Of a stretch of DNA of 64,000 bases, positions 4,971 through 48,781 are shown one piece after another. Source of the DNA: a virus (lineage: Duplodnaviria; Caudoviricetes); the IMG/VR virus record IMGVR_UViG_3300005077_000001, positions 96,001-160,000 of that record; one strand, written 5' to 3'. Each line of letters begins with the position of its first letter. Positions within the stretch are counted from its first letter, which is position 1. The notes below the pieces were generated by a model. That model searched no databases, was not told the origin of the DNA, and saw only the letters and a program-made list of their open reading frames with translations. Both the position numbers and the translations under genes were made by a program.

Positions 4971-6050
4971 ATGATAGATTTGAGTATAGATACTTTAGTA
5001 CAGAAAATTGAAGAAATTTCCAGTGGAGAATGTGTAAGGCACATAGAGGCAAATGACTCTTATGTGCTTTATACCTATCCTAATAAATATCAATTTAAGC
5101 TTGCCGATATAAAAGAAAAACAAACATATAAATTAGCTACAGATGATGGTTTTCCAACTATAGAACAGATGGAAAAACGATTAAGAGAAGGGGGTTTGTG
5201 GACTGAAACACACGAGATTAAATCAGAGGATTTACGAAGTAAGATAAAAGGATTACGAGTAGTTAAAGATGACCCATCCCTCACAAAAACAGAAAATAGA
5301 AAACATATTTTACAGCAATCAATTAATAAATATGAAAAAGAATTATGGGAATTAGAGTATATAAAAGATAGTAAACTAGACGAAACAGTGGAGCGGAAAT
5401 CTCGTCGTATTAGATACGATTATTTATGTTGGTTATGCGCGTTTGATCCATTTTCTAAAGATAAATTTTGGGATAAGTCCTTTGATGAATATCAAATAAT
5501 AGAAAATATATTAAAAACAGAGGTTTTAACTAACTTTATACAATTTATAGGTGGTCATGAACAAGAAGAAATTAGGTATATAGCTCGTAGCACTTATTGG
5601 AAAGTAAATTACCTAGTTTCACAAAAAAGCAATTCTCCTCTATTTAGTCGGTCTGTGTATGAAATGACCCCTGACCAGCTCAATTTATGTTATTGGAGTC
5701 AGTTCTATCAAAACATAAATGAGATGATGCCAGAAGACAGACCAGATGATGAAACAATAGATAACGATGAGGCATTGGATAAATGGCTAGAGGAGTATCA
5801 CAGGAATAAAAGCGAAGAACGTAAATCAGCAAGGCTTTCCTCATTTGGATCTAGTTCGGCAATGAACCAAAAAGAAGTTTTGGTATTTAGATCCAATCCA
5901 AATTACGAGAAAATTGAATATGATGAGCCACCTTCTACAGAAGGTAAATTATCAGACAGTGACACAAAAGAAAGTATGGACAAAAAAGGTATGCGTCTTA
6001 GGAGATTAATAAGACAGAAAAAAATGGAGAAAAACAAGAAAACTGATTAA
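4971..6050 (+). CDS. Putative second tail assembly chaperone
   Basis: 359-aa helical ORF whose TAA overlaps the tape measure ATG; synteny. Confidence 0.5.
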   Translation: MIDLSIDTLVQKIEEISSGECVRHIEANDSYVLYTYPNKYQFKLADIKEKQTYKLATDDGFPTIEQMEKRLREGGLWTETHEIKSEDLRSKIKGLRVVKDDPSLTKTENRKHILQQSINKYEKELWELEYIKDSKLDETVERKSRRIRYDYLCWLCAFDPFSKDKFWDKSFDEYQIIENILKTEVLTNFIQFIGGHEQEEIRYIARSTYWKVNYLVSQKSNSPLFSRSVYEMTPDQLNLCYWSQFYQNINEMMPEDRPDDETIDNDEALDKWLEEYHRNKSEERKSARLSSFGSSSAMNQKEVLVFRSNPNYEKIEYDEPPSTEGKLSDSDTKESMDKKGMRLRRLIRQKKMEKNKKTD

Positions 6051-18000: not shown

Positions 18001-21000
18001 GGTAATACAAGGACCATCTAAGGATATATACTTAAGACAATTTGAAAGGGCTCAGATAAAATCTGGAGAACGACCTGGAGATTACGTATCTTCACCCGCT
18101 GCACGATGGGAAGCATTACAGGAATTAATTGCAGGACATCCTGAAATGAAATCTGCATCTGCTTATAATAAGGATATATCTTTAATAAGGTCTTCCTTTT
18201 ATAGAGATTTGAGTAGAGAAAGCATACAGCATTATGCTCCTGGGCGTAAAGCAAAAGAAAAACCTGATTTCAAATCAAAAGATTATATTAAAATGGTGGG
18301 AGCTAGTGCTGGTGGTTATGAAGTTGGTAATATTCTGTCTAGTATGCTCTCTCTAGATGATATCAAAAACTTATATAGCTTAATGAATGAGCTTACTGGG
18401 TTGGACCCTCTTAGAGTGAAAGGATCAGATCCTGAAAAATCTAAGAGCTTAAGAGACAAAATAGAAAAATTAAGAAGTATGACTGGTTCTAGAGGAGCAA
18501 TGCCTGGTGAAGAACAAGCTGCAAAAGAACGAATAAGGGTATTAGAAGAAAGACTTAAGGAACTTGGTGGTAATGAAAATAGATTGGAAACCCTGCATGG
18601 AATTACGTCTACTGCATTGCCTTTTGCTGGGGCTGCGATTGGAGCTGGCGTACAATATGCTACTACTGGGCTATTTTCAGAAAAAGGCATACCAAGGTCT
18701 TCCTGGGCTAATTTGGCAGCGGCTGGTGTTGGAAGTGTAGTTGGAGCTGGTGGTTTACCTTTATTGTTAAATAAACTTCCATGGGCTGTTCCACATCTAC
18801 CGTGGCACCTTATAGGAGCTGGGGCTGGAGCTTTAGGAGGGTATGGGCTATTACAACTTTATAGAAAATTATCTAATAAGCCAACTAAGCAGTCTTATGT
18901 ACCAACAAGTATAGGTACACCTATTGAAGGTAAACTAGGTTGGTCTACCGATAGTGGGTTTTTCAAAGTAGGAGCAGAAGGTTCAATAGGGTTACCTCCT
19001 CTTTTAGGAATGTCAGGGGATGAATATTTAGAGAAAGATATAAATACATTATTCAATCCAGAGGTTAGACAATCCCGTTTTGTTGGATTACCTCAAAGAC
19101 TAGTGGATCGTATAGATCCAAGAATTTCTGGATTACTGAGGTCTAGCTTGTCTTCAGATCAACTATTTAATATAGGAGCGAATGTAGGTGTTGGTCCAAT
19201 TAGTTTAGGATTTGAGTCAAATTTAGGATCTTATAATTTAGGTTCCTTACCTTATGAGTCTCGGCTTAAGCCACGTATTTCTTTACGAGAAAAAAACTTA
19301 GATGAATTTTCTACAGATTATTTAAATAGAAAACCAGGAATACATCCTCATTATAAGCAGGGTATTTCTTCTGCCTTGGAAATGATGTCTCCAATGGGTA
19401 GTTCTGATTTTCTTGATATTATACTATCTGGTACGGATATGCTAGATGATCTTCTATTACGCATGCCAAAATTAAAAGGACCCAAAGTTAAGCAGACGAA
19501 TAGAATATTTAATTTGACAAGAGATATAACTCCTGAAACTCCTATCAAAGAGCAAGCTCTATCTTTAAAAGAAGTACATGATCAATTAAGAAAAGGGTGG
19601 GTAGCAATAAAAGAAGGAATCGACCAATTTCCTGGTTCAACTTTAACTACTCCTAGCTTTTCTGTTTCTTCTATAAAAGATTTCTTTTCTAACCAATGGA
19701 AAGGTTTAAAAAATGCTATAAACACATTTTCTTCTTTTACTCCTACTAAGAATTTAAGGAATGAAATAAATAGTTTAAGATCTGGTCCTATAGATAATAC
19801 TATATTACAAAAAATAATAGGATTAGAAGAAGAGGTTATAGGTCGTAGAATTGGGATTTTAAAATCTATATCTTCATACAATCCTCGTCGTAGGGCTGAA
19901 TTAGAAAATATTTTTAAGTATGCTAATACTTTTAAACCAGGTTATCAATTTGATGTACAAGGTCCGGGTGGATGGGAAAAAATATTCTTTGAAGAATATC
20001 TTAAACGTGGTGGAAAAGAAACTAGTGAAGTCCATGTTGCTGCGAGAGAATTAAATAAAATGGGAATAAATAATTCTCAACAGCTAAGGGCGTTACAAAA
20101 CATAGTAGGTCCTGGAAAAGCATATGAAACAATTGAGAGTGTTACTCCTATTCCGGTAGGCCAAAGAGTTGCTAATGATGCATTTTCCTTAATAAAAACT
20201 GTTCCTAGTTCTATCAAAAATGCTGGTACATTTATGATTGATGCCTTTAAAGATATAGGAAGCTTTATTTCTACTTTTGTTAAAGGTAAAGATGCATCAG
20301 GCCAAGTATTTAATAGGTCAGCCTATTTTAGTAATGTAATTTCTGAATTACAAGATACTCCTGAAAGATATAGCACAATAACTGGAACTTTATTAAAGAA
20401 TCCAAAAGCCGATACAGTATATTCGCCAAAGATAATGGGACATTTAGTTGAATTAGCCAAATCATCAGTCTATAGGCCGTTAAATGCTCTAGGTATGGGA
20501 CTTGGAAAATTTATTGAACTAGATTTGGATAATAACATCGAGCCTGGAGTTAAAGGTCTATGGAAAAACTATATTACAAATCAATCTGGTGCGGATATTA
20601 AATCAGGATTAAATAGGCTATTCGGTTGGAAAGGCGGAGTAGTAAACACTACTACTGAAAATCTAAGAAATATAAAAGATTCTACTATTGGAGCAGCAAA
20701 GGTTTTTAGTAAAGAATATGGTCCTTCAAGAACTTGGGATTTATTAAAGAGCTTTTATACGGTTCCAGCTTATGGTGTTGGGGAGGCTATGCAAGGTGTT
20801 GGAGGAGCAATAAAAAGCGGTAATATACTAGATATTGCTAAGACTGTTGGATATACTGGTTTTCAAGCATTACCGTTCTTGGGGCATGTAGTATCTGGAG
20901 GATTTGAATTAAGAGACCAATTGCGACAAGGCCATAGATTAATTCCTTCTATAATTGGTACAAGTGCGAAAGAGTCAATTACTTATGGTACTACCGGCCT

Positions 21001-24000
21001 TGGTATGACCGCTGGAGAAGCTGTGATGAGGGCGCTATCTAATAGTATGGGCCCACGTGGTAAAGCGTTGATGTCTGTAGTAGGCTTGATTGGAGGGGGC
21101 ATTGCAGGAGGAGCATTCGGTGGTCGTATTGGGGGGATAGCTGAGAATTTGGTATTCAAACTTTTTGGTGAAAAACCTGATGACCACCAAAAAATACAAT
21201 CTTGGAAAGATCGTAAGAAGCAACTAGAAGATGAAAAGAATTCTTTAGTAGCAGTTACTCCAGATCGAAGCTATGCTCCAGTTTCTTCATTAGAAAGACC
21301 TTGGATAACTCCAGCAGAAATAAGAGGGTCTATTGCTCCCAATTTAGTAGGAAAACCACTAGATGCTTACATTAAATCTTTTAAGCAACTACAAGCAGAA
21401 GCATCAGAAAATATCCGAACTTCAGACGTTAATAAGTCTCAAAAGGCTTTAATAAAAACTACCTCAGATTTTTATTTAAACCGAGTGATAGAATCAAGAA
21501 ATGAACTAGAAGCCGCTGAAAATAACCAGTCTCCTAAATACGTTGTAGATCAGATTAAAAAGCAGATAGATGAATACATGATTAAATACGTATCTAATGT
21601 TATTAGTGCTTCTATGACTGGGGAAATCCACCCACTATCTGACCCATATAGGGTTAAAAAAACTGGAGGATTTGTTGGCGTAGATGATGCAAAAGCTGTG
21701 GCTTTAGGTAGGTCTCCTTCATTTGAAAAAGTTGTTAACCCGGAAAATTTCTATGTATCCGGTATGAGCAATTTATCTAAAAACATTATAGGTTCTATGA
21801 GAGATTTATCAGTATCCAACATTAGTCCTAACTCTGTATACAAAGAATTGATTAATACATTATTTACTACTTCTACAGATATCCCTAAAGATCTTTCAAA
21901 TATACATGCCTATTTAAAGATGTATACCTCTGAATTAGGGAAGAACCCTAACATTGATGTAAACAGATTGAGATATTGGAAGTCCTTAGAGGAATTATTT
22001 AGAACACCAGCAAAATCTATTAGACAGTATGGTAGATTTGATTTTCAAGGATTTGGGAGTATTGAATCTAATGCTCCAGTTGAAGAATTATCTCCTACTC
22101 AAAATCGTGGATCTAAATTTTGGAGAGGAATGTCTATATTTGGGGGTGCTTTGGTTGGGGCTAATGCTCTTGGGATGAATCCATTTGTGGCTCCTGTAGG
22201 AATGGTAGCGGGCGGTATATTTGGAAATTACCTATACAATAGACATCTTGCTAAAAAACAAAAACAAGAAGAAGAAGTAGTGGATGTTCAATCTAATGCT
22301 CCAGTTTCTGATACGAGATCTTATTTGAAATTAATATTAGGAGAATTAGCAGGAGCTAGTATAGGTGGCGTTCTAGCTGCTTTAGCTTCTGGAGGTAATC
22401 CTTTATTTACCAGTTTAGGTGCTGGAGTAGGTTTGTACGCTGGTAATAAGCTTACCAAGAAATATGTAATTCCACAAGAAATGGATATTCAATCAGCGGC
22501 TCCTATAAATATGGGCGGATTGCCTATCGATATGCAGTTTAAGCAAAATCAATTAATGCTTGATTACTACAAAAAAATGATAGCATCTAGTTCTTCTATT
22601 AAAGAAGGTACTATAATACCTATTGATCTAAAAGTTAAAGATGAGGCAGGTCAAGTACTTAGTAATATACGAGCAGATTTAAAGAAAACCTCAAATAGCG
22701 CAGAGGGGGTTATTACTACTTTTACAGATTTAAATAAAGTATTAGCTCAGAAAAATACGCTATGGGGTGCAATAGAACTAACTAGCCAATATGTTGCTGC
22801 TGGTGCTGGAGTAGGAGCAGTAATTAAAGAGTTTACAAATATGATTTCTACTATCACCAGTGTAGACGCAGCAATGTATGGTTTAGCACGCCTAATGGAC
22901 CCTGCAATATCAAATTTTGATAAATTAAGATCAGTTGCATTTGAAATGTCTAAACAATATGGAACTAGTATTGTTGAAGTCATTGAATCTATGAAAGTAT
23001 ATGGTCAGCAAGGTCTAAAGCAAGCTGAAATTATTGATATGACACGAGCTTCTATAATGATGGCAAATGTATCAGAAATGAAAGCTACAGAAGTAACTGA
23101 ATTGATGACTTCTGCCACTAAACAATTTGGAGATCAAGTAAGATCTACTATGGCATTTGTTGATGCATGGGTTAAAGTTGACACTGAGCATGCTATTACT
23201 TCACAACAATTAGGACAAGCATTATTACGAGTTGGTGCGGCGGCTAAAACTGCTGGTATGTCTTTTCATGAATTAAACGGTGTTGTTACTGCTATCGGAT
23301 CTGTAACTAGACAAACAGGTAGAGAGATAGGTACTTCGTTAAGATTCATTTTACGTAATATAGAAACTTCTGCAGTTAAAAATAAATTAAGAGATCTATT
23401 TCAAATTGATACCCTGTTGCCAAGTGGTGCTATAAAACCCGCATTTGCTCTGTTAGGGGAATTACAACAAAAATGGGGCACTATAACAAACGCTGAACAA
23501 ATGAATCTTGCTCAAATGATTGCTGGTGCAAGACACTACAATGCTTTTACTGTTTTAATGAATAATTTTCAAGAAGCTTTAGAAGCTACATCAGATTCTT
23601 TAAATTCAAAAGGTGATGCAGAAAAAAGAAATTACATTTTAATGCAAAGCTTAGAGAAAAAAATGCAGCAACTTCGTGGAGCAGCTAGTGAATTATATAC
23701 TGAATTCGGTAAATTAGCATTAGGACCAATGAAGTTCATGGCTGATTCAACAAAAGCTTTGATTGAGGGTTTTACTAGTTTACCTGATTCAATAAAAACA
23801 TCAGTTATGGCAATAGGTGCATTCACTGTTTATGCATCAAAAATAGAGAGAATTACTAGTATACTTGGAGGTATTGGTGAGGCAAGTGGTCTTTCTGGTA
23901 TTGTGAATACTTTTGGCCAATTCTCTATCAGTCCTATTTCTAGCATAATATATTCTTTTGATTCATTAAAAGGTGTTAATTCCTTAAGCCAAGTTAATAC

Positions 24001-27000
24001 AACTTTAGGAAAAATGCTTTTCCTAATAAAATCAGTAGCAGATAGCTTTCTTCATGCAGGAGCTTCTGCTTTTAGCTTCGTGCATACTGCTGCTAGATTA
24101 ACTTCCCTTTTTAGTATTGGGGCTTTCATTAGTAGCGGGTTTAATCCTACAGCTTTACTTCCTCTTCTTGTAACTAGAGGACCTGTACTCGGTTGGGGTG
24201 CTAGAAGGATGTCTAATCTGATGAATCAAGGTACTGAGGGGATACTAGAAAAAGTCTCTTCTCCTACTGGGTTATTAGGCATTGGCTTAACTTATGTCTT
24301 AACTAGGTTAGCAGGTTTAAATACTGGTATGCTAAGTAGAGAAGGGATGGGTATTGGTGATACTATTAAACAACTATTCATTGGACCAGAAGCTGAATTA
24401 AATAGATACAAAGAGCAAACTGTTCAAATAGGGGGAGCTTCTACTCGCATATCTTATCTAAGTGATGTGCTTAAATCTTATACTGCTCTCAAAGGTCAAT
24501 ACAAGTCTTTATCTGAAATAGGTGTAAAGTTAGGGACTCCTGAAGGCATTACTTCTGAGGCCGAGCGAACATTATCATCTTTTGGGGAAGAAACTGGATT
24601 TAAACCATACATGGTTCGCTTATATGAGTTTAATAAACTACAAGAGGAAGCTAAGAGAAAAGCTGGTTCTTTGATTCCTTCTTTAGTATCTGGATTTGAT
24701 TTGTTTGGTAATTCTATACTTCAAGTTAATAAAAATTTCCGTACTAACATAGAATCTATGGATGAGCTACTAAAGAAAATACAAGACTTTGAAAAGATAC
24801 ACCTTGCCGGATTACAAATAGATAAACTATTCCCCGAAGCCAGCTTTGGACAAACATTTAGAAATACTTTAAAAGGACTAGTTGGAACTTTACCTTTTAT
24901 GGGAGAAACTTGGGCTGAGAAAATATTCCCCGCTACACCATACCAAAAACAGCAATCTATTTTGAAAGATATATCACGTTATCAGGGTATGCAGAATGCT
25001 GCATTAGCGACTGGATTACCTGTGCCTCCTTTTATCACTGATACTTTAAAAAATCTTAATAATAAGTTAAAAATGGTTAATTCAGAATTAGATTCGGAAT
25101 TAGCAAAGATTAAAGATACTATTGCTGATCTTAATGTGAAGACTCCTAAAGAGGTACTATCCGTATTATCAGATACTAAATTCGGGAAATATTTAGAAGT
25201 ATATGGTGGAAGAAATATGGATGTGCTTAATGCGGTGGCTGGATATAGAGGTATTTCTACACGGGATCTACAGAAGCAGCTAGTTCAGGATACTACAAAG
25301 TATGAATATATGCATATTGATAAACAGCCTGGTATTGCAAGTATCTTATCATTTCCTGCTTTCTACGGATTTTCTAGAATTCTATCTAAAGTTGTAGAGC
25401 ATTTTACTTCTCTTTCACTAGCTTCTTCTAATTTAGGAAAAGCTCTATTGCTTGCAACATCTGCAGCCGCAAGTTACCATTTTTTTGGAACACCTGAACA
25501 TTATTCATTAATGAAAAGTAGACCAACAGTTGAAGATACTTTAACTCCAGCAATTAATAATGTTAAAAATTTATTACCGTATATTACAGCTATTGGAACA
25601 TACAAAGCATTAGGAGCTATAGGCGGAGGTGGAGGAACAATACCTCAAAGGATTGTGGGAGGATTAGCGAGATTAGGGGTATCCTACTATATGTATGGGG
25701 TGGGAGGGAGATTAGCAGAAGGGATACCAAATCTACCTACAGAATCAGATAGAGTAAGAGGTATTAAAAATGAAATAGCGCAACGTCAGGCTTGGGAATT
25801 AGCAATGGGTAAATTAGGTATTGCTAAAGAAGCCATATATGGGCCTCCAGGTACTTTAGGGGCTATGCTGCCATTAAATGTTATTGCTGCTCAAAACCCA
25901 CTAGGCAGGTATGCTGTTCGTACAACTGCTCTGAATGAAGAAGATAGAAAATTAGCTGAAAAAAGAATGTTTTCTGGTCCTGGTTGGAATGGTGGAGCCT
26001 ACGGGGTAGGTGCCGGATGGGTAGGCAAAGTATTAGAAGAAGAACTAAATAAGCTGTCAGGAGTATCTGAGGGTGATGTTGTCATGATGGCAGAACTCAC
26101 TGATGTGGCTAAGAAGAGAGAGAATATTGTAAATAATTTACTACCACTAATTTATAGACGTAATAAAGCAGGTGAAGTAGTTCCTACCGTACAAGCTCAA
26201 AGGGAAGGTGAAATTCAAGCTTCAGAAATACAAATAAAACCAGAAGATTTAAAATTTCTATATTCACGTGGCCCAGGAGCAGCAGTTGATATGCGTACGG
26301 CATATGATCAGTTGAGGCGTACCTTAATTGGTGGTGCTGGTGCTGGGAAATACTGGACTCTAAGTGGAGCAGAGAAATTACAAATGGGGGTAGATTTTAT
26401 TTGGCAAGTACATGGATATGACAAGGCTATCACAAATCTATCAAAAACTTCATTAGTTATACATGAAATAGAAAAACAATTACAGGCTTTTTCTAAAGAA
26501 CAAATAGAAACAGCTCGGGCTCAAAACGATTTAAACAAAGTAATGGACGTAATTTTTGAGCATCGCAAATTGACATTCTTAGTTAGAATGAACCAAGAAT
26601 GGGAGAACTTAAAGAACACTATTGGTGAAATAGATTTTAAACGTCAAATGAGCGATGTTGATGAGTTTGCTACTATGCTAGAAAAAAGAGCTGCTATTGG
26701 ATTAAAAAGCATTTCGGCTGGCTTACCTCCTCAGGTTCCAATGGTAGCAAGTTGGAGTCAACTATCTCCAGAAGAACAAAAGTCTGTTCTAAGTCCAGAG
26801 TATACAGGCACAGCAAAATTAGCATGGGAAGTACAAAAATATCAAACTGATACAGCAGCAAAACTAAGAGCTACTCTAAGAACTGAACAAACAGGGGTTG
26901 CTTTATATGAGCAATTGAAAGAGGATTTAGGGCCTAATCTGAATGTGGCATTAAGTGGTAGAACTAGAAGAGCCCTCCAAAGTGATTTTGGTAGTAAAGT

Positions 27001-30000
27001 ATCTCCAGATAGAGTTTTTTCTGAGATACAGAGAAATCTATTAAGTGCTAATCTAACGGAACAGATGAAAGTAAATCAAGGTGCTTTCAATCTGAGTAAT
27101 CAAGAATTAGTAAATACGGTAGCAACTAATATGTCTCAAGTACGTGAGATTCAGAAGAGAGTTGCGGAAGGAGCTAAAGATCCTAAGATACTTGAAATGG
27201 AAGCAGATCTAAGAACAAGAAATGCTCAGATGTGGGTTAATGAACTAAAAAATAGACAATCAGTTTCACCAGAGGATTTTTCAGGGGTTAGTAAAGAATT
27301 ACTTGAAGGTTTTATTCATGAAATGGAAACTGAGGCAAAAAAACCGTTACCCTTTAGCTGGTGGAGATTATTGAACCCATGGGCATCGAATGAACCTGCA
27401 ATGCAAGCACAGAAAGCTAAGGATTTATTAGCAGCTAGACCAGAATCTACTTTTGATAAACCTATTGAAATGTTGGGGTCTATAGCTAGTTTATGGGTTG
27501 GAGAAAAAGTAGCTGGATTAATGTTTAAGCAAACTGGTCCGGCTGGGCTAGAGCAATTAGTTAAAAATATGGATAAAAGTAAGACGTGGGAGAGGGAAGT
27601 TATGCTAACTCAATCCCAATTTTTACGAGATATAGCAGAAAACACAGGTAAATTAGCAGGGACTCCTTCTCAGTCATATGGGCCTGGTACAGTACCAGGA
27701 CGTGGAAGCTACTCAGTTTTAAGCTCAGGATTGCAATTAGCTGGAGCTACAGCGGGTGGTTTTCTACTTTATTCTCTTGGTCAGCGTTTATCACAATCTA
27801 CCAGTACTGTTGGTAGTGCAATTGGGTCTTTAATCAATTTATTATTTAAAACAGCTAATGCAACAGGTACTTTTGGTAAGTGGTTAGGAAGACTTGGTCC
27901 TATTATGTCTGGTTTAGCGACTGCATACGTAGCACACCAATCTGGCATTGGTAAAGTGGATTCACTTATTGGAGGTGCATTAAATGCAGGTTCTGCTGCA
28001 TTAGGAGGTATAGGCTTAGGATTAATACACCCTGCTTTAGCAATTCCTGGTGGAGTGCTTGGTAGCATGGTAGGTAGTGGTTTATCAGATCTTTATTATC
28101 GTATTAGAGGGTATGATTTAAATGCAATAAAGGGAGTCGAAGGACAAGCAGCTTCTCCTGGACAGGAGTTAACTAATCCATATGCAAATATGCAAAGCAT
28201 ACAAGCCAATGTGCCTGATAGTATGTATAGTACTTTGGCGCGTATCGCTACTACAGGACTTGTTGCGGGGGCAGTTAAATCTAATGTTTTTGATGTGTAT
28301 TCTGAATATCGTAAACGTGGGATGGAAGAAGAAGTTGGAGCATTCCAATTAACTGCTGTTGCTCAACTGATTGGTCGCGATAAAAATGTGAATACTAAAT
28401 TCAAAGAATTTATAGAGAGTAAAGACTTAAAAAATAAAGATGAGCTATCCAATTTTATTAAACAAGCCGAAAAAGAAATGGGTCTTGGTAAAGAACCAGC
28501 AAATAGAGAAAATTTTCAAACTGATTTACAAAAATTTATTAATAATCTAGTGTCACAATTAAAAGAAACTCCTGAATTTCTTAATGAATTTGCTGAATCT
28601 ATCTCTTTTACAATGGCTAAGATGAATGAGTTTGCTGAGGGACTTAGATCAGTATCAACTACTTTAGGTGGATTACATGCTATTTCTAGAACAGTTCCTT
28701 ATGAGTTGGAAGCTAATGCTCCTAGATTTGGTTTCTTAGCCGGTCGTGGTGGTCCTGAGATATCCAGAGAGAAAGAGTTATGGCAATTATCTCCTACCGA
28801 TCTTTTTAAGTTAAGAGATACACAAGGTTTATATACTAAATATGTAACAGTACAAAAACAATTATCTGAATCTGGTAATTCTTGGGTAAAAGCAGTAGAG
28901 GATTATAATAAACAACAACGGGATATGGCTGCTCCTATTTTAGGAATTAGATATGAACTAAATAAAACAAAAAGGAATGTAGATCCAAAATATAGAGAAT
29001 TCATAGATGATTTAGCTAAATTCGTTGAAAATCCAGATCGTAATAGAGCTGAAACCATAGATTTTAGAAAAAGAGCAGTTGAATTAGAAGAGGCCGGGAT
29101 CAAAATAAAAAGATATAATTTAACTTGGAATAAAATTATGGAGGGGCAATCTCCTCGTAAACAGTTTGAAGCTTATTTTTCTGAGGAATCAGCTAACACA
29201 AGAATAAAACAACTACAAGTAGAATCTGGTACAGCTTCTAATCCAGAACAAGCAAAAGAATATGCTGCAGCAGCTGAAAGATTACGTGCTGAAGTTGAAA
29301 CTAAAAAGAAAGAAGAAGGGCAAAGTCCGCTTAGTTTATTCAGAGATGTGATGGTTAATTTAGAAAAAGAAGGAGGATTACTCAATACAATAAAGAATGC
29401 TAAAGAGCAAACTCTTCAAATCACAAAAGCATATATAGATTTAAATACGCAAATAGATTCAGAAATATTAAAAACAGAGCATTTAAATAAACTATATACT
29501 ACTAGATATGAACTTTTACAATCTATAATTTCATTGAGGCCTGGGGGATCTATAATTGAAGAAATTAAACGGCAAGGGCCTCTATTTGGACCATTGGCAG
29601 GTACAACTCCTTGGTCACAAAATGTTATTCCAGAGAATCTTGGAAAACCTTTTTCTTATGAAAACTACATGTCAGTTCTTTATCCACAACTCTCTGAGGA
29701 AATGACTTCCATACAAAGAAGAAAAGACGCTATATCAAAAGCAATGCAAACAGCTGCTCAGGAATCAGAAAAAGCTCAAACTGGAGAAACATTTTATAGG
29801 GAAGCTTTATCCGCTGTTACTACTGGTAAAGGACCTATGGATATATTGCAATTACAACCTAAAGGTGCAATGCTGAAACAGGCCATTTTTGAAGATACTA
29901 AACGAATGCGGGAAGAGCTTAAAGAGTCTAAAGAAACTAAAAAAGACTATGAGAAACAAATGGCTGATCTTAAGATACCTGCTGGATTCAAAGAGAGTGA

Positions 30001-33000
30001 TAGTTATAAAACATATATGACAACCAAAAAGAATATTGCAGATGTAGAATCCCTAATGCCGCTTATAGAGGATGTTAAGAAAACTGGTGCTGACTCATCT
30101 TTACGCTTAAAGGAAACTTTAGTTAAGACTTCCCCAGAAGCAAAGAAGTTAATTGAATCTAACCAACTATGGGATATGACTCCTGAACAGGCACTAAATC
30201 ACTTAAAGAAAAAATTACAGATAAATCAAAAAGAGTTAGCTAAACAGCAATATCAAGGTCAGCCAGTGTCTGATATAGGGGAAAAATTAGATAAATATGA
30301 AAAATTAGCGGGATACAAAAATATCAGGCAGGCTAGGATAGAGCAATTAGAGGAAGACATCAGCAAAAAGCAAGAAGAAGTGGATATTGTTAATTTACTT
30401 AGTAGCTCTGATTTATCTAAGATAGACCAAGGTGTAATAGACTACATAAATGCTAAAATTAAAACATATGCTGACCAAGCAGAACGTGCAAGTAAAGATG
30501 AAACCATGTTTCATGCAGATGGGAATAATTTAATTAAAGAATCAATGTCTAAAGTGATGCAAGTTCTAGGTAAATCAATAAAAGCTAGATTATTTGCTCT
30601 ATCAGATCAACTTAATTATGAATTTGATAAAATAAAATTTACTCCTGCTTTAGAATTAGGGGCGATGAGATCTCCTCTTACGGGAATAACTGCAGGTCTT
30701 CCCCTGATAAATCAACCAGATATTGGTAGAACCTGGAGAGAAGCTTCTTCTGCAGAAAGAGTTCTTTATTCTAATCCTGGTTTGTCAATGGCTAGACAAG
30801 AATTAGAAAGAATGACTCAAGCAAATATTTCACGAGTAGAGGGGTATATGAGAGATAGATCTGAGGCACAAGCTCAAAATGAGCGTATTAAAGAGCAGGT
30901 CGAGACTTTTAGTAAATCTGGAAGATTAACTCCTCAAGCAGAAGAAATGTATAAAGCAAGTATAGAAAAAAATAACGAATATATTAAAGAATTAAATAAA
31001 AAAATAGAAGATTTAACGGAATCTATTGATAAAAGTAGGAATAGTGAAATAGCTTCAGACTATAGAAGAAGTATGTGGATTGATGCTATACGAAAGCAAT
31101 TAGAAGACTTGGGAGTTAGATTTAAGGAATCCATTATTAATTTTGGGTCTGACTTGAAGAGTGCAATAAGAAAGTCTCCCGTTATGGGGCCAATGGCAGG
31201 AGTAGCTTATATTGGAGAACCTCCAAAGTCTCCTAGTATATGGGAATTATCTGCTGGCCAATTAACATCAATACAGTATCCTGGTATATACCAGCAGGGT
31301 ATGGCAGCACAAAGACAAAAAGAAGCAATAGATGTTTATATGAAAGGTATAGAAACAGCTATTTCGCAAAGACAATCCGAGTTAGAAATGGCTAAAACTC
31401 CTCAAGATGTAGAAAAAGCAAAAACAGAATTAAAAGAACTCATGGCAAAATACGATGAGGTGGAAGCAAAGTATGGTTCTCAAATTGATAGCCTAAATTC
31501 AACGATAGCAGAATTAGAGAGGTTTAATATTGCTTCAGAAGGAACTAAAACAGCATTAGAAGCAATGTACACTTATCTAAGAGCTATCGCTGATATTAAA
31601 GCGAGACGGGATTTGGGATATCTTACCTCTCCGTTCTCTGGAGCGATGAGAGGAGTCCCTGAGGCAAATTTTGAAATTGGGAAGAATGAATGGGAATTAA
31701 CAGGTAGAGAGGTTGTAGCAAAATATTCTCCTAATTTAGCCCAAGGAACAGCTGATTGGCAATCCTCTTATAAAGCTTTGGCACAAGAAGCAACGAAAGT
31801 GGGATCTGCTAGGAATTTAGCACTTCTTGAAGCTCGTTTTTCTGGAGATCCTAAAAAGCAAGAAGCTTATTTAGCAAAAGCTACGTCATTAGATGCGGCA
31901 TACCAGAAAATGACTAAAAGCCTAGAAGAGCAAAGACCTAAGATAGAGGCTCTAAGTGAAAGATTAAAAGGTCTTTCAGCGGCTGGAGAAGTAGCCACAA
32001 AATTTGAACAACTAGCTCGTCAATTGTATGTGTTAAAAGAGACAAATTGGGGATTAGACTATATTTCTTATCAAGTAGGAATGGGTAAATTTCCTGGTTC
32101 ACTAGAACGAGCTAGAATGGATGAATCAACAGGTATGCTTCTACCTGGGTTAGGTACTCCAGGTATGAATTATACCCCAATAATGGAATCTAGAGCATCT
32201 GGCTATGACGAGTTTGGAAATGTGAAATACGAAGACGTACCTCAACCAATGCAGCCGGGAAGCAGGTTATGGCAAGAAGCTATTTTACATCCTGGGAAAG
32301 CATCCTACTATAATTGGCTTGCTAAGGAAGAACAAACTAAAGCATTACAAGATAGAGAAGATCAGAAATTAGAGCAACAAAAAGGTATAGCAAAGCAAGC
32401 TCAGACATCCATTGTAGAAGCTCTTTATGAGCCATCTCTTCCTGAAGGATTTAGAGAAGTACTAAATAAACAGAGATCTAAATTAGAAGAAGATTTGAGA
32501 AGAGCAAGTGAAATAGAAGAAGTTGGGCCTGATAATATTTTGAAAAGGAGAGGCTTTAAATCTTTAAATGATCTTAAGGGTTTATCAGATGCCATAAAAA
32601 ATGCACTTAAAGCCGAAGATAGAAAATTAGAAGCTACTTATATATGGATGCCTATAGTAGATGCTATTAGAGATTTACATGGTGCACTAACAGGTGAAAG
32701 ACCTGAAGGAAGCAAAGAAGAACAAAGAATGCGCGCATTCTACAATAATCCAGAACAATATTATTATTCAAAAGCAGCACAACTAAGCCAGCATTATATG
32801 GGACAAGAAGGTACAAGTGTAATAGAAAATACTAATTTAACTAATACTTTATCCTCTATAGAAAGTAAACCTTACAGTATACCTGTTGGTCAATATGCGG
32901 GTTATCAAAGCAAGTTAGGTTCAAGAGATACTAATGAGATATTAAAATCTATATTAGAGGTGTTAATAGGGTGTTGCAGAGAAGGTAAAGTTGGTTCTGG

Positions 33001-36000
33001 GAGATCATCAGGAACATCTGATACAGGAAAAGAAAGATCGCCTATAAGCCAAGATTCAGGCAGCGCATCTGGGAGTGCAGGTGTACAAACTTTTGACTAT
33101 GGTACTCCAGATTATCAAAAACTAGTTCCAGTAGGAAATACTGCCTATTCTGTTGGCTCATCCACCACTAAATCTTCTACTTCTGCCGGTTCTGGATCAG
33201 TTCAGTCTTGGGTAAAAAGTGATGGTACAGTTGTGGGAGTACCAAAAACCCAAGTAGATGCAATGTCCTATTTGAAACATAGAGGCTATCCTGATGAGAA
33301 ATTAGATGACATTGCTGAAAGATATAAACGTCCTTTACCTATAGGAGATTATTCTACCGATAGTGTTATGATGGCGGCATCTAGAGCTTATGCTAGTACT
33401 GGAAAGTACTTTAGGCCTAGTGAAGCCTATAATAGTGATTTTGATTGGAGAGTTAGACAAGAAGGTAGTCTTCTTGATATTGGAATATCTAGACTTAGCG
33501 ATAATAGGTTCCTATATTCTGATATTAAAGCTCAGATGGAATCTGGTAAAGGAGCTGGTTGGCTTGATTCAGAATCTAGATTAGCTCTAATATTAGCGCA
33601 TGCTCCTTCTCTTAACATAGGGGGCAGACAGACTGTAATAGGGGAGTCTAATCCTTTAAGTATGGCGTTTGTTAATCTCTCTAAAGCACGTATGGATCAA
33701 ACTGTTGCCCATGAATTATTTGGACATGGTATGGAGACTTTAGGTGCAGCTGAATTACGTGGGGAACAAGGTATTTCAATTGGGGCGACACCACGAGTTG
33801 AGTATCTATCGAAAGTATTAGAATTGATAAAATCTCAAGTAGGTGAAGCTCCATTTAGAACAATTACTAATCAACTAATTAAAGATCCTCAGTTATATCC
33901 TGATTTATTCAAAGGGCAAGGTAAAGAAATAGAAGATGCCTATGCTGCTTATGTGAATAGATATCCTCGTGGGAATGTTCCTACTTTAGAACTTCTAAAG
34001 ATGCAAGAGAAAGCAAATAAACTCCCTCTAGACTTATCTCCTAATTCTTCTAATTGGTCTCGTTTGACCGAATATATGGCAATGTTTGCTGAAGGAGAAA
34101 ATACTCCTTATGGAATACCTACTGAAACTTGGCTTCGTGTGGTACGTAATGTTTCGCCTAGACATTTCGAAGGAGTAGATAAGTTCCTATCTTCTAGATT
34201 TGCTAATGATAATCTATCTGATTCTGAATTAATGAAAGAATATAGAATTGCAATTAATAAAATTAAATCAGAAGTTTATACCCCTGCTCATTTAGTAGAA
34301 CAAAAAGAAGTCACACAACCAGTTGTTAGCCCAATTGATAAAACGTTAGCTTCAATTGGAAGAATTCCAGATTTAAATTGGAAAGTATTTTCTGATGAAT
34401 TTAAAGAACGAAATAAGATAGGAATGGGTGACAAACTAACCAAACTATTTAATAATGTAGGCGATAGTATTAAAAAAGTTGTGTTAGGAGATGATACAAA
34501 AGTAGCTTTACAGAAATTTCAAGGTGTTGTAGGAGCAGTAGAAGTTGAAGAAAATAAGTTTACAAACGATTTATCAAAAGCTTTAGAATTAAGATCTAAC
34601 GTTATTTCTCAAGTCCAAGAAAGTATAGGCTTAATAAAAAGCAAACGAACACCCTTAGTTAGTAGTCCCCTCATTAGAAAAGATTTGATTGGAGCAGGTC
34701 CAACTGGTGTTGAGTTACTAGAAAATGAAAGACAAACTGGAGAGTTAGTTTCCAACATTATAGCAAGCAATCTTTCTAAAGCCTATCAACTTCCTTTTAC
34801 GGATAGGACTAGAAAGCTATTATCTAATGAACAAATTGATATGGGGTATAAAAAAGATTTACTCAATCTTACTCCTACGCTACCTATGATAGAGGAAAAT
34901 CAAAAAGACGAATATAAAAATAAATTGTTTATTCCTATAATGAAATCTCCATACTCTGAATTAGCTAGAAAATTTTCCAATGAGGCACAAGCACACCCTG
35001 AAGTAACTTCAGAAGCCATACCATTAAGAAATGAAGTATTTTCTATCACAAAAGAAATGGCTGGTACTGGACCTACTGATGTTTCCTTGGATACAAATGA
35101 ACCTGTAGACTACACATCTCCAGCAGGAGTAATACCTTTTGTATCTACTCAAGGATATCAACGGACTTTACCATCCTCAAATCTTCCTTTTATGATGGGG
35201 CTATTTAGAGGAAGAACTAATGAGCCTTTTAAATTTGATGGAGGGTCATCTTTATTACCAGGTGTTGATAGACGTGTAATGTTACCAGAAATTAAGGATA
35301 AATATCCTTCAATGCTTAAAGCTTTTACTAATATGCAATCTCCTATATACCATTATAAGGGTATAGCTAAATGGAATGAAGGAAAACCATATATCAATAT
35401 ATATAATTCTGATAAGATATCGCTAGAAGAATTTTTAAAAAGGGCTAAACACGAGATAAACCATTTAGTATTATATAGATTATACACTTCTCTAAATAAA
35501 GAAGAAAGAGATTATTTAAAAACAGAATTGGAAACTACACCTTTCTCAAAAGATTTTCTTCCAGACATAGTTGATATGGTAATAAAAGGAGCTGGTGGAT
35601 TTAAAATAGGAAAAGAGTTATTAGCCATGTCCACTGAACGAGGATTAATGTCTGATAGTCCTATATTAAGAAGATTACAAGAAATCACATTATCGATTTA
35701 TAAAAAACATGAAGCAGAATTAAAAGATGTTCATAAGAAAACTATGTCTGGCTCTTCTTCTTTGTTTGATTTATCAACAGCAAAATATATATTAGAAGAT
35801 ATTAAATCAGATCCTTTAAAACAATCTTTGGGCGCAGGTGCCGAAGGTAAGATATATACAAGTCCTAAATACCAACATTTAGCTGTAAAGGAATATGCTC
35901 AACCAATATTTGGATATCAAGATTGGTTAGATCGTGGAAATGAAATAATGCAGAGATTGCACGGTACGTCTCTATTTCCAGAAACATCTTTAAATTATGA

Positions 36001-39000
36001 TGATAAAAAAGGCGTTTTTATAGAAATTATGGAACGGTTACATGGAGAAACTGTGCATAATTCTGTTGGTCAATCAGGTTTTAATAAGTATGAGGTACTA
36101 AAGGATTATAAACAAAAAATTTATGAAATGTTGAAACGTAAAGTATTTCCAGTAGATTCTCATCTTAATAATATATTTTTGGAAAGTTCATCTAAAAAAC
36201 AGAAATTTATAGACTTAGGATCTTTAGATTTAGGAGAAAATGTTGAATATATAAATGAAATTTTAAAAGACATAGGAGTTAATCAATATTCTAATTACTT
36301 AACTAATGATCACTCAGCTAAAATAGAGCAATCAAAAATAGCAATAGAAGCTTATGCTGGGCCTGTTGTTGATATTCAAAAAAAAATGACGGCTGGTAAT
36401 AAAAAGATTTTAAAAGAGATTTCGATTCCAAATTTGGAAAGATTAATTCCTCTTTTTAAGAATAAAACACTAAAAGACATGTTTCAAAATGCTTTAGATA
36501 CAGCTAAACAATATGCTGGGTCTCCTTCACTCTTAAAAGGTCCAAATGATTTTCCAACTTTCTTAAGCGGTCTACATCCAGGAATGGCCCCTGAACAAGC
36601 CATTGATGCAGCTATGGCGGCTAACAAACAATCTATTGAATACTTAGGTGGCCCAGAAAAAGCGGCGGGTTTCTTAGAAGGGTTTAAAACTCCATTATTA
36701 GAAGAAACACAAAAGAAAATAAGAGATATTATGAGAGGAGAATTTGGTGGTTCTTCCTCACTAACTAGTCATTTTATGAATAGTTTACGAAGGATGCCGC
36801 AGTCTTATGAGGCTGTTAAATCTCTTCATTCTGGGGTTAGAAACTTAGGTCTTCAAAACCAAGTTAATCTATTTGGTGGTGGAGTAAGAGATATTTTAAG
36901 AGGCGAAACACCAAATGATTATGATGTACAAGTTAGAAGCCAAGAAGCATTGGATCTATTAAGAAGTAAAATGCCTTGGGATCTTTATAAAGTCAATGAA
37001 GCTTTTGATGTTAAATCTTATATGCTTCCTACAAGGAGAGAGTTTTTATCTACATTAGTGAATGAGCTTATAAAGCATACTTTTTTAAGCAAAACAGTAG
37101 GAAGAGCACAAACAGCACATCAAGTAACACAAGATTTAAATACACTTTTAGGCAAAGATATTAAGAGAGAAGTTTTAGATAGATTTGGAGGTAGTTCTTC
37201 TTTATTTGATATGTCTCCTGATTTTAAAATAGATTTAAGTAAACCTATAATTGATATACCAAAGATTCCTAAGATACCTAGAATACCAAAAACAGGGTAC
37301 TATCCTAAAGGTAATTTAGATACCTATTATGATTCTATATTTGCAACTCCAGAAGAAAAACGAAGTATATCTTGGAATGAAAGATTCAATGTAGATTCAC
37401 TAGTTCAAGGACCATTTGAAAACCTATATGATGACATAATGCGTGATAAATATGCTCCTAGAACCCGTCCAAGTATAAATTTTAGAAATTTATTTAGTGC
37501 TCCTCAATTTAGAAATATATTTTCTAATTTAAAAGATAGTGGAAGTGTATTTTTTGGTGGTACTGGGAAAGCTCAAAGTACACAAGTGGAATTAAAAACA
37601 TCTAAAGATATAGAAAGATGGTTAAGACAATTCACTGAAGCTGAAGTAATGCAAGTTGCACAAGAAAGCCATAGATTAACTGGGGATTTAGCAGGTCGTC
37701 AAGCTCCTACACAAGAAACTGCAAGGGATTATATACTTAATATACTAAACGATATTGCTCAACGAGAAGGTGGTAAACTATTAGCTGGGACTGGAATAGC
37801 TAAGAAATTCTTACAAATTATTGCTCCTGATCTAACTCCTTCGTTATTTACTGGTCAAACTTCAGAAGGTAGTATCAGAAGAGGCCATAGCTTTGGAAGA
37901 CCTAGTGCCACTTTCGGAGGAGGTAGAGTTTCTATTACTGAAAGTGTTGCTGGAACAGGTGCGGAGAAACATGAATTTGGAGAAGCACTTTCTGATGTAG
38001 CTATCCAATTATTACATCAGCGTTTTGAAACCGGTACTACTTCAAAAGAGCAACTAGCTTATGAAGATTTAATGCCACTAATAGAGAAGTCTGCACCTAA
38101 AACTGCACAAGAAATAAAGGATCAAATGGAACGTAAACTGGCATATCCTACGGAAGGTGAAAAGTTTAGTGAAGTTTTAGCGGATATTATGGGGCAACAT
38201 CAAGAAAAGTTGGTAGGTAATCTAATATTAAAAAACAATATTACTCCTGAAGAATTCATGGATATACTAAAGCCTACTGGAAAAGAAAGTGGTTATGAGG
38301 AATTCATTACTAAAGAAGCTTGGCATAAAGTATTGCAAGAGCGTTATTATGAAACACCCAGAGGGGAGGGAGAAGGTGCTATGCCAGAACTCCCACGTGG
38401 GTATAAGTTAGAAAAAGGGGTTGGTAGATTAGGATATCGTACAGCAGGAGCGGCAGAAAGTTTACTCCATGTTCCAATGATTGGTAGCCCATTGTCTTTA
38501 GTAAGTGCTGCATCCAAACTAACAGAAGGAACTAGATTTAGTTCTCCTTTCCAAATAGCAGAAGAAGCAATGATGACTATGCGTGGTCCACTCGGTATGG
38601 CTGCTAGATTTCCTTTTGGTATGGCGGGTATCTTTGCTGGTTCTGCGTTAGGAAAAGGACAAGAACTAGGAGAGAAATTAAATATTAACCCTCTAACTGG
38701 CACTCTACTTGCTTCACCAGAAGAATTATTAAATTTTCAATTATTTAATCTTGGAAGCCAAGCTGAGTTCTTTGGAAAAACACCTTTATCTAAAATTGGA
38801 AAGCCTATTGGTCCTACTTGGATGCACGGATGGGGAGGAAATTTATCACCAGAATTACAGGTGAAAAGAGCAATAGCTGAAGCGGGAACACTTAGAGGAG
38901 GAGCAGCTTCCCTGCTTAAAACGGGTGGTAGCTTAGTAAAAGGTACTGTAGCAATGGAAGCTCTTAGTCCTGTTGGGGAATCTATTTTTGGTTATATTAA

Positions 39001-42000
39001 TGAAAGATACGGAAAAGAAATAGATGAGAAATTAAAAGGAATAATGGGGGAAGATACTTATAAAAATTTTGCTTTAACTACGAGTGGTATAGCTAGACAG
39101 TTTTCTTACATATTTAGTAAAGTAGGAGAAGCTGCAACTAGTGTTCCTGGGGGAGAGTTAGCTAGCTTCGCTATTAGCGGAATAAGAACCAACATGAGTC
39201 GTTTAATAAGTGACAGAATAGATACAAAAGCAATAAAATCCGCTAAAGAAAATATTAGAAGCTTAGAACAACAAATGCAAGATTTTCCTACATTTAAACC
39301 TTTCTATGAACAACAAATACAAGAAAAACAACTTAATATTGAAGCGTCTGGTCGATCTATGGGGGATAGGTTATTAGAAAGGATGATGGGGCAGAGGTTT
39401 GGAGAAGGAGCTACTAGCACAAGGGTTGAGGATATACAACAAAGAATTGACTGGATGAAAAAAGCTTTAGCAGGAGGAACATTAGAAACTAAACCATCTA
39501 TCCCATTTGATTTGGGTCCTCTAAACTTCATAAATGATTTACTACCAAAACCTGAATTAGATGATAAGCGTAAATGGGAAGAAGTAATACCTGAAGGTGC
39601 CCGCAAACAATTATTAGAGAGGGAAATAAAAAAATTAGAAGCTCAAATGCAAACTCCAACTGCTATTGGAAATTTACCTAATATTAATGATTTTATGTAC
39701 GAAAAAACAGAAAAAATTGTTAATATGAGAAAAGAAAGAATGGATTTAGAAGATGAATTAAATAAGCTTATTGGCGAAGATCCAATGGGCGGCCAAACGG
39801 GCCCAGCCAGAGCTGGTATTAGAAATAAAATAGCAGATTTAGACAAAAGAATAAATCAAGAAGTTCAAGTAACTGATAATTATTATAAATTAATAACTGA
39901 GGCACAAAAAGCACAAGTCTCTTCTACACAACCGCAGATTCTGGCTGAACCGGCACCTGCCCAATTAGAACCTGGTACTGAAGTTAAGCCACCAAAAGAA
40001 AAAGTAATGATGCCTGGTATTTTAGGAGATTTGATTAAACATAAATATGCACCACAAATTGTAGCATTAGTTGGTATGATTCCTAAACCAAAAGTTCCAG
40101 TTAAAACATTAGCTGATACTCCAAAAGAAGAGATAGAAAAAGCTTTAGAACTTGCTAAATCTGAACGAGGTAAAGCTTATAACGATTACTATAATTCCCA
40201 AGAGTATGAAAAAAATAAGGAATTGATGAATGATATCCTTAATTCTAAACCTGGGTCAAAAGAATGGCGTGAAGCGTCAGAGAGGTATAAACACTACACT
40301 ACTGAAACTACATCTCATCTAAATCTTAAAGAATCAAGAGTATTTGAATTAGAAAAAGAATTACAAAAAAGGGATGAAAAGGCAACTGAGGTAAGAAAAA
40401 GGTTAAAAGATAGAGAGAAAGCAATTAGTGATGAGAATAGTGAGATAGAGAAAAAGATAAGATTCATTTCTAAAGATAGTAGGGTTAGTGAATACCCACA
40501 AGCTGATTACTTTAAAAATAGAATTGATACAACAACAGAAGATATAGAAAAAAGAAGAGATAAGAACCGAGCATTGTTGGCTGAATATGCCTATAATTTA
40601 AATCAACCCGGATTTGAGGCAAACGCTACTAAAAGTGAAGATGTTCTAAATGAAAAAACTTGGAATCGTGAATACGGAACATATGAACCTGTGCGTATGC
40701 CTAAAGCTGTACCGTTTATTAAGCCATTTGATCCGTATGAAGCAGAACGTGCTCAGTTAAATATGTGGGGGTATACTCCTTCACAATTATATAAAAAGAC
40801 TCATCCTAAAGAACGAACTCCGTTGAGATTACCTGGAATGGGATTTGGAGTAGTGTTTACTGCTGGTGGAGCTAGAGAAGAAGGTTCTGGTGGAGCTTGG
40901 GATTTAGGCAGCTCTTTTATGTCTGATCAATCAGATTATAGAAATGCTGGTTTTGGATATCCAAAAAGAGAAATGGATGATAGAACAATAGGTGCTTTAA
41001 GTCAAGCAGAAAAGGCTAGACGAGAGTATATGGGGCTCTTAATTAGGGCACATACCCAATTTGATTCAACGGGCAGTAAAGGTTCATTCCCAGCAGGAGT
41101 ACAAAAATTATTAGATGAAGCAAAACTTAAGCAGCGTTATTATGAACGTAGAGCATCTCAATTTGAGCACAACGAAAGAGCAGTAAGAAACGGAGAAATG
41201 GTAAATGGTAAGTCTGTTACCATGGATACCCCCGGCTATATGGGAATGAATGGTGATTGGATTTATAAAGAACACCCTGATGATGCTAAACTTCGTATGG
41301 ACTGGGAAGAAAGAGATAGAATAGCTAGGAATAGATATGATCAAGAACATTTCCTTGATGGAACTAATATTTTAGGCGGGGCTCCTAATGAAACAATGAA
41401 AGAAAATGCGTATTTGATGGGGTTACCACATGATAAACAACAAGCTTTACAGCAATTAAAACAATATGGATACTCCCAAGATAAATTAAATCAGATTGGT
41501 GGAATATTACAATCAGGGAAATCGCTAAAACAGGTGGGGTTAGAAGGGTTAGCTCAGAATCAACAAGCAATTTTGGATTTTTGGAAAAATGCTAAACCTA
41601 CGAGCATGATGTCTCAAGAAGAAATAGATAGAAAACGAAATGAAGCGGAACTGACAATGCAACAATATAATGATAAATTAGGACTTTCACAAAATAACCG
41701 GGGTTGGGATGATAAGGCGTATGGAAGATACATAGCTCAAAATGCAAGACCAGAAGTTAGTCATTTGATGGTTGATTATTATAGAAAAAGGCATGGGATG
41801 ATCAATGCAAGAGAAGATTCTTTTGAAAATTCAAGAGAACAATGGGAATATCGTAGAAAAGAAGTCGGAGATTTATCTGATGAGGAGAGAAATGCAAGAG
41901 ATCAAAGGTTAAGAGAAGGAATACCTAATTCTGGAGATTTTGATAGAGATACTTGGGAAGAAACTAAACGGATGCAGGATTACTATTTTAGTAAATGGAG

Positions 42001-48034: not shown

Positions 48035-48781
48035 ATGAGCACATGTAATTGTTGCATAGTATATGATTTATCTGTATCAGAAGGTAATGCAATATTAACT
48101 GGAGTTAATTCTTTAAATATTGATACAAACCTTACCTTCGACTGGTGGGATGAGACAGATAATGAATGTAATCCATATAATACAAAATTAGATTTAATTG
48201 GCCCTGCTATTACTTCATTACAACTGACAGCACACCCATTTGATAATGATAGTATGGAAGAATACGGGTATACTATGGGATTCTCTTGTCCATTTGAATT
48301 ATCTGTTTCAATTGGATATAAATTTATTAATTCTTGTAATGAATGTGTGGATTGTATCGATCCTATAACCGGCGAAGTAATAGGAAGACGTAGAGGTCGT
48401 TGGATAGGTGTCCCCAATCGTAAGAGAGACATAAAAATAACTGGAAACATAGATGACATCCCTTCTTCATTAATGGAATTTGGAGATAGGTTATATAGAG
48501 TAAATAAACTCAATGTGCAAGCAGGACAGCAACCTTTTATTATACCTCCAATTACTTATGCCTATAAGAGTGTCAAATATAAAGGGGGCCCGTTGCTTGT
48601 GGATACAACACAGGATTTTGTGTACGAATTCAGTGTTAATTCTGAAAAATCCTGTCAAGGAATGTTAAAAGTAAATAATATTGAGGCATATCTCACTAAT
48701 TTTACTTGGAAATTTGAACCCCCAAATCCACCAACTTGTAACTATACCTTCAATTGGTATACTGCATTTTGTAACATTTAA
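48035..48781 (+). CDS. Cys-rich hypothetical tail-tip protein
   Basis: 248 aa, beta-rich, about 11 Cys; operon context. Confidence 0.4.
   Translation: MSTCNCCIVYDLSVSEGNAILTGVNSLNIDTNLTFDWWDETDNECNPYNTKLDLIGPAITSLQLTAHPFDNDSMEEYGYTMGFSCPFELSVSIGYKFINSCNECVDCIDPITGEVIGRRRGRWIGVPNRKRDIKITGNIDDIPSSLMEFGDRLYRVNKLNVQAGQQPFIIPPITYAYKSVKYKGGPLLVDTTQDFVYEFSVNSEKSCQGMLKVNNIEAYLTNFTWKFEPPNPPTCNYTFNWYTAFCNI

Follow-up and report, generated by a model that had tools for sequence, protein, structure and literature searches.

A repeated Gly/Ser peptide between cargo modules of a giant phage tape-measure protein, a candidate module-junction signal

We analyzed a 64,000-nucleotide stretch of DNA (hereafter the window) from an uncultured tailed phage, positions 96,001 to 160,000 of the IMG/VR record IMGVR_UViG_3300005077_000001, which carries a giant tape-measure protein encoded by a single open reading frame (ORF) of 12,315 amino acids (aa). 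Five copies of a seven-residue motif, phi-x-G-[G/S]-[S/P]-S-L with phi being F, Y or M, lie within 650 residues of this protein, all in the same ORF and in frame, and separate four self-contained modules that are unrelated to one another and of which three resemble enzymes. We tentatively interpret the motif, from sequence comparisons, as a lineage-specific module-junction signal that would be read at the protein level, probably for proteolytic release. In this divergent lineage, it apparently replaces the Gly-Gly spacer that related phages have at such joints. The protein and the five copies are located as follows, in window coordinates:

6050..42997, plus strand: giant tape-measure protein, the carrier of the motif
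35234..35254, plus strand: copy 1, FDGGSSL, aa 9729-9735, in the peptide FDGGSSLLP
35744..35764, plus strand: copy 2, MSGSSSL, aa 9899-9905, 98 aa past an HExxH site, in the peptide MSGSSSLFD
36512..36532, plus strand: copy 3, YAGSPSL, aa 10155-10161, in the peptide YAGSPSLL
36743..36763, plus strand: copy 4, FGGSSSL, aa 10232-10238, in the peptide FGGSSSLTS
37184..37204, plus strand: copy 5, FGGSSSL, aa 10379-10385, in the peptide FGGSSSLFD, followed by a Pro/Lys/Ile-rich linker

A first-pass annotation of the window had reported four of these peptides, all of which are in frame (at 35234, at copy 2, at 36743 and at 37184), but it started copy 2 at 35750, which encodes Gly (the Met lies at 35744), and it missed copy 3. 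With a matrix built from the four earlier copies, no other new site of the protein scored as high as copy 3, which fell inside the same interval, and across the 12,315 aa a relaxed pattern ([FMYWLIV].G[GSA].S[LIVM]) matched the five copies and nothing else. The enrichment over shuffled sequence that the annotation had called for was observed, with 4 occurrences of a fixed pattern (G[GS]SS[SL]?L) vs 0.08-0.13 expected and none of 2000 shuffles reaching 4. The motif was also the top motif in unsupervised discovery on the giant protein, whose best 9-mer self-match is GSSSLFDMS/GSSSLFDLS. The probability of five random points falling within 650 aa is P=4e-5, for a pattern that was picked after the fact. 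When any best motif was allowed (look-elsewhere correction), five copies were equalled in 2 of 100 local shuffles and four copies in 2 of 40. The motif is real, though not overwhelming on repetition alone. An aromatic residue (or Met) and a Leu stand six residues apart in all five copies, the sequence before most copies is helix-favouring and the core of the motif is helix-breaking.

Outside the giant protein, the motif does not occur in the scaffold, the capsid or the other ORFs, except for one further match that we take to resemble the glycine-rich loop of a GHMP-type kinase, and a genome-wide head-protease tag was ruled out by this absence. No head protease was recognized among the four head-cluster genes scanned. 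A further peptide, which the first-pass annotation had counted as a weaker copy in front of RNase H, was rejected as having neither the aromatic residue nor the Gly (rank 12, 5.3 bits vs 22-26 for the four earlier copies); RNase H is preceded instead by a second motif, described below:

17174..17191, plus strand: LSSSLQ, not a copy of the motif

The five copies delimit four segments of 163, 249, 70 and 140 residues:

35255..35743, plus strand: zincin-like metallopeptidase module, 163 aa, with HEINH at 35450 and the third-ligand Glu9856 at 35615
35765..36511, plus strand: minimal protein-kinase-like module with a helical tail, 249 aa, with GAGAEG at 35831, LAVKE at 35879, DSHLNN at 36155 and IDLG at about 36209
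36533..36742, plus strand: mini-module, probably helical, 70 aa
36764..37183, plus strand: nucleotidyltransferase module of the poly(A)-polymerase/CCA-head type, 140 aa, with GGGVRD at 36875 and DYD at about 36917

Three of the four segments (zincin, kinase and nucleotidyltransferase) match stand-alone proteins of the same size, so that the motif sits between self-contained modules; the three assignments and the coincidence of the motif with domain borders, both proposed in the first-pass annotation, hold. Atlas look-alikes of the zincin module are 173-206 aa long (score 0.95), those of the kinase-like module are stand-alone proteins of 218-226 aa, headed by two viral ones (0.97-0.98) with kinase families after them, and those of the nucleotidyltransferase module are PolyA_pol-head proteins of 115-140 aa (0.94-0.95). 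The kinase-like module also matched Pfam ABC1 (E=0.003) and, by tblastn, weakly matched Bacillus phage kinases, and the nucleotidyltransferase module matched phrog_1614 (E=5e-5) and PF01743 (E=0.006). The mini-module had no significant NCBIfam or PHROG match, and Pfam gave nothing significant on the stretch covering it. Just before copy 4, the peptide IRDIMRGEF (36719-36745) resembles VRDILRGET (36884-36910), the nucleotidyltransferase active-site motif 55 residues on, which suggests chance or a small local duplication.

In an alignment of the zincin module with the zincins of 15 relatives, H, E and H are invariant and the downstream Glu nearly so; because we chose the alignment ends near the motifs, its limits there are no independent evidence of a border. 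Fold matches of this module were weak (ArdC and LF-type zincin domains, Z 3.9-4.3). In a model of moderate confidence (pLDDT 63, pTM 0.59), the fold sits between copies 1 and 2, copy 1 being a low-confidence coil outside the core and copy 2 coming right after the last long helix, where SLFD forms a short strand; this model had no Foldseek or Atlas match and only zincin-type rows at Z~4. A single-sequence AlphaFold prediction of 820 aa was unusable (pLDDT 35). The HEINH zincin, numbered fifth in the first-pass annotation, comes fourth by our count among the giant protein's five zincin-like sites (window 16787, 17888, 33710, 35450 and 37970). These comprise three HExxH and one HExxxH, each then followed by a Glu helix, and a last site (HEFGE at 37970) in which the second His is missing and which may be inactive.

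Searches for relatives of this cargo returned none: phmmer with aa 9601-10500 against 1.8 billion representatives gave 0 matches, a word search with the kinase module gave no match at E<=10, and scans of viral, metagenome and genome contigs, using the region, the tail-cluster genes and the downstream gene as queries, found no sharer of the cargo. The closest relative found (62% in the downstream gene) is on a 3.9-kb contig, which covers no more of the giant protein than its last 289 aa. All protein matches were at most 7,998 aa long, and longer relatives may therefore be missing from that collection.

We then compared the copies at the DNA level. Where pairs of copies share a residue, 16 of 49 codons are identical vs 17.1 expected from the codon usage of the gene. 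The copies share 13-18 of 27 nt with a longest common run of 9 nt, serine codons vary freely among them (e.g. AGT vs TCT), and no DNA repeat family covers them. As codon agreement is no better than expected, selection would act on the peptide, and a junction at the DNA level is unsupported. Two candidates were rejected on these grounds, namely that the copies form a DNA repeat and that they are recombination sites with a conserved DNA sequence, no DNA being shared beyond coding constraint.

Related proteins, 56 in number, and 38 viral loci were available for comparison. These relatives punctuate their last 2600 residues with [FYM]-A-x-G-G-x-V, at 13.5-fold over shuffles. Both motifs are seven residues long, with the same hydrophobic-to-hydrophobic spacing, a small-residue core and the same zone of the protein. 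The five copies have an aromatic residue or Met at position 1, an aliphatic residue at position 7 and small residues between, and lie in the C-terminal cargo zone after a zincin, but they do not have the Gly-Gly, positions 4-5 reading GS, SS, SP, SS and SS. In the relatives, the Gly-Gly motif is often accompanied by a connector of ~50 aa (GPGG...GE[FY]V), which 321 records of isolated phages also contain; among the matches listed, the annotated genes with it are tape-measure genes. A zincin is present in the C-terminal cargo zone of 15 of 49 relatives, and in 5 of these 15 the Gly-Gly motif follows HExxH at +77 to +96, compared with +98 for copy 2 in the giant protein. The C-terminal part of the latter has a sole good canonical copy of the form aromatic-x-x-G-G-x-hydrophobic, which the relatives' matrix ranks 2-3 of ~12,300:

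42104..42124, plus strand: FSKGGGL, aa 12019

Alignments between relatives tend to break at the Gly-Gly motif, which accounts for 43 of 207 ends (21%) of long, high-identity matches vs 7.5% expected, an excess that the connector's own conservation may partly explain. Inserts bounded by the motif are clear (e.g. ~127 aa in P0011 vs P0007), and modules are tandemly duplicated in P0019 and P0043. Judging from these alignments, the Gly-Gly motif is where modules have come, gone or been duplicated in the relatives, which use it family-wide as a cassette border (P0001-P0049, L002-L039). In precomputed Pfam annotations, the cargo of other relatives includes helix-hairpin-helix-type families (P0003) and PF00929, presumably an exonuclease family (P0010, P0012, P0015, P0022 and P0023). 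The literature accessible to our search contained no description of the giant protein's motif or of a repeated Gly-Gly motif as a cargo border.

If the motif is a junction signal for release, the tape measure would be packaged together with its cargo, and a protease would cut at or beside the motif, more likely at ejection than during tail maturation, freeing the zincin, the kinase, the small helical protein and the nucleotidyltransferase as separate effectors. The likeliest protease would be a zincin of the same chain and, over evolution, new cargo would be best tolerated when bounded by the signal. A protease site, also one of the two readings offered in the first-pass annotation, fits the protein-level conservation, the apparently intact zincins in cis and the known cleavage of tape measures in lambda and T5. 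Cleavage in the Gly-rich C-terminal region of lambda gpH removes a ~14-kDa piece, giving gpH* and gpHC, the site and the protease being not known (PMC12617516), and the T5 tape measure pb2 is cleaved (PMC11937520). In our searches, the connector matched lambda gpH (E=9e-6) starting at F733, 12.7 kDa from the end. Autoproteolytic release by zincins has been a standing proposal for polyvalent proteins since 2017 (Iyer et al. 2017, PMC5512222). The papers on Douge and JBD30 report no experimentally determined site of cleavage.

Several points weigh against a junction signal for release. Its look-elsewhere significance is only about 0.02-0.05, and the motif marks no other virion proteins. Absence from homologues, which the first-pass annotation had listed among its refuting conditions, was in fact observed, none of the 56 related proteins and 38 viral loci having the five-copy cluster; it is not decisive, since all of these relatives are distant, with a core identity of about 30-40%, and carry other cargo than the giant protein. 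Against the relatives' matrix, the five copies score low (softened ranks 42-979 of about 12,300), and the hidden Markov model (HMM) of the connector finds nothing in the giant protein (best E=5), so that the equivalence of the two motifs is positional and in shape only, and their common descent is not established. The first-pass statement that each C-terminal cargo domain is bracketed applies to the zincin, the kinase and the nucleotidyltransferase but not to the zincin-like domains at aa 9221 and 10641 or to the stretches at aa 9400-9728 and after 10387, all of which are without a bracketing motif. Tape-measure C-termini are thought to exit first, towards the envelope, and a kinase and a nucleotidyltransferase need cytoplasmic nucleoside triphosphates. 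Finally, P23-45 gp96, the best-studied relative, is full-size in virions (PMC10770324), and the N4 virion RNA polymerase (RNAP) is packaged unprocessed (PMC5512222).

The main rival, which we regard as possible although rather unlikely, is an uncut structural joint, where the Gly/Ser core would end a helix and the flanking hydrophobics would dock on a neighbouring domain, a chaperone or the tail lumen, the modules being threaded unfolded and refolding independently while remaining one chain. The helix-favouring sequence before most copies and the helix-breaking core agree with such a joint, as do the placement of copy 2 after a long helix in the model, with SLFD as a strand, and the full-size gp96 of virions (PMC10770324). 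However, a plain flexible linker would not need a fixed aromatic residue and Leu six residues apart in all five copies, and other borders in the giant protein do without the motif.

We consider it improbable that the copies are DNA recombination junctions for swaps of cargo cassettes, or relics of such swaps, the second reading offered in the first-pass annotation. In its favour, relatives acquire, lose and duplicate modules at the equivalent Gly-Gly motif; the GC content also steps across the copies (29, 29, 40, 34%), which amino-acid content may explain. For the copies themselves, it is not supported at the DNA level, where the codon counts and the 9-nt longest run given above leave no identity beyond the protein requirement and no repeat family is found.

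More improbable still would be phosphorylation sites for the embedded kinase, with a Ser-rich form of the motif having arisen around the kinase and regulating the neighbouring modules or their release. The kinase module has all five copies no further than about 330 aa away, Ser occurs in this lineage where relatives have Gly-Gly, and none of the relatives showed similarity to this kinase; this argument is purely positional, and a junction role is the simpler explanation for sites placed exactly at all the borders of four modules. A chance cluster of low-complexity Gly/Ser linkers, as could be argued from the equally strong best motifs in 2/100 and 2/40 shuffled proteins and from the lack of a confirming homologue, is the explanation that we credit least, because the shuffle test ignores position, yet the copies coincide with domain borders that were defined independently of them, and the fifth copy emerged as the top new match inside the same interval.

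The giant ORF lies in a tail gene cluster on a phage-like contig of 256 kb with 33% GC. Pfam detected in its product an RNA ligase, a LigD 3'-phosphoesterase (LigD_N), an RNase H and a tape-measure core (PF10145, PhageMin_Tail, aa 5630-5826, E=1e-26, 94.5 bits vs a cut-off of 33.2). RNA polymerase motifs occur in aa ~800-2300, with NLDFDGD (DxDxD) at aa 1992 and HRQPST upstream. By these motifs, the giant protein is a tape measure fused to an N-terminal two-barrel RNAP, an architecture like that of P23-45 gp96. The RNAP zone is kept in most of the 56 relatives, and ~50 of them (5.5-8 k aa) match only this zone (aa ~800-2300) and the tape-measure core (aa ~5500-6400), so that the scaffold is of the kind known for P23-45 gp96, with two much enlarged cargo zones. 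The giant protein also has what defines a polyvalent protein, namely unrelated effector-type domains and interspersed zincins in one chain, counting RNA ligase, LigD_N, RNase H, kinase and nucleotidyltransferase as effector-type domains and 4 zincin-like sites with both His and the downstream Glu. The named LPD and MPTase Pfam families gave 0 matches, the nearest being a cluster of Atlas look-alikes (LPD23 on 18% of members) and an ArdC fold match at Z 4.2.

In the helical tape-measure part (window 28700-31650), a P-x-x-G-x-x-A-G peptide is loosely repeated (aa 7558, 7844, 8209, 8377 and 8528), with the variants PRFGFLAG, PLFGPLAG, PLTGITAG and PVMGPMAG. A gene with RRXRR and HNH domains, an architecture that we take to be IscB-like, is inserted in the tail gene cluster (window 45704-46927), and LAGLIDADG-like endonuclease genes (phrog_4645) are present at 48681 and 51783.

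Next-ranked after the junction motif in the unsupervised discovery was Q-[ML]-[QK]-[SA]-F-x-P, a motif of the N-terminal cargo:

14174..21280, plus strand: N-terminal cargo zone with [QKRE][SA][FY]xP, copies at 14174, 15038, 15701, 16367, 17096, 17216, 18890 and 21266

This pattern, which was refined after the fact, has 8 copies in aa 2300-5500 vs 0.46 expected (0/1000 shuffles) and 10 copies in the whole protein vs 1.6 expected, the further ones being at 6287 and 27671. Copies lie on either side of the RNA ligase, ~103 residues after a zincin and immediately before RNase H; the copy at 16367, inside LigD_N, is probably due to chance. Those relatives in which it could be checked showed no enrichment of the pattern. 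Degenerate forms were noted at 22064, 22289 and 22490 (SNAP/SAAP) and at 18227 (HYAP). The copy at 21266, RSYAPVSSL, shares the aromatic...SSL spacing with the C-terminal motif, and two similar peptides in the C-terminal zone, DIMRDKYAP (37433-37460) and DLIKHKYAP (40028-40055), echo the N-terminal motif in their YAP ending. It is a doubtful proposition that the protein carries two zone-specific processing codes, [QKRE][SA][FY]xP for the cargo from the RNA polymerase to the tape-measure core and phi-x-G-S-S-S-L for that behind the core, each recognized by a zincin from the corresponding zone; if true, the virion would deliver two separately timed or located enzyme sets from one gene.

The junction peptide is known so far from one genome of an uncultured phage. 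At this locus, an expressible 700-residue fragment contains five precisely placed candidate sites, with a candidate protease lying between one pair of them, and would give products of predictable size; cleavage, if true, would tie tape-measure processing to effector release.

Among known systems, the polyvalent proteins of phages and conjugative elements likewise combine unrelated effector-type domains with interspersed zincins and a truncated kinase, but the main text of the paper describing them does not use the words "linker" or "tape measure", and we found no junction motif or tape-measure scaffold there (PMC5512222). P23-45 gp96 is likewise a giant tape measure with a two-barrel RNAP, including DFDGD, fused at its N-terminus (PMC10770324); it differs in having 5,002 aa, no HExxH and neither of the two motifs, as well as in being full-size in virions, and it has almost no sequence similarity to the giant protein (a single blastp match, E=0.08). 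The uncultured RNAP-tape-measure relatives (P0001-P0050, L002-L039) have the same scaffold, a seven-residue motif in the C-terminal cargo zone and often a zincin, whereas their motif is [FYM]-A-x-G-G-x-V, the full-length ones reach 5.5-8 k aa and they have no detectable cargo in common with the giant protein. Lambda gpH is a tape measure with short Gly-containing motifs near its C-terminus (FATGG at 733, YATGG at 778) that match the connector of the relatives, and its C-terminal processing is documented (PMC12617516). It has one reported cut and no enzyme cargo, whereas in the giant protein the motif has no connector, is Ser-rich and recurs in five copies among the modules, which places it some 2000-2600 aa before the C-terminus.

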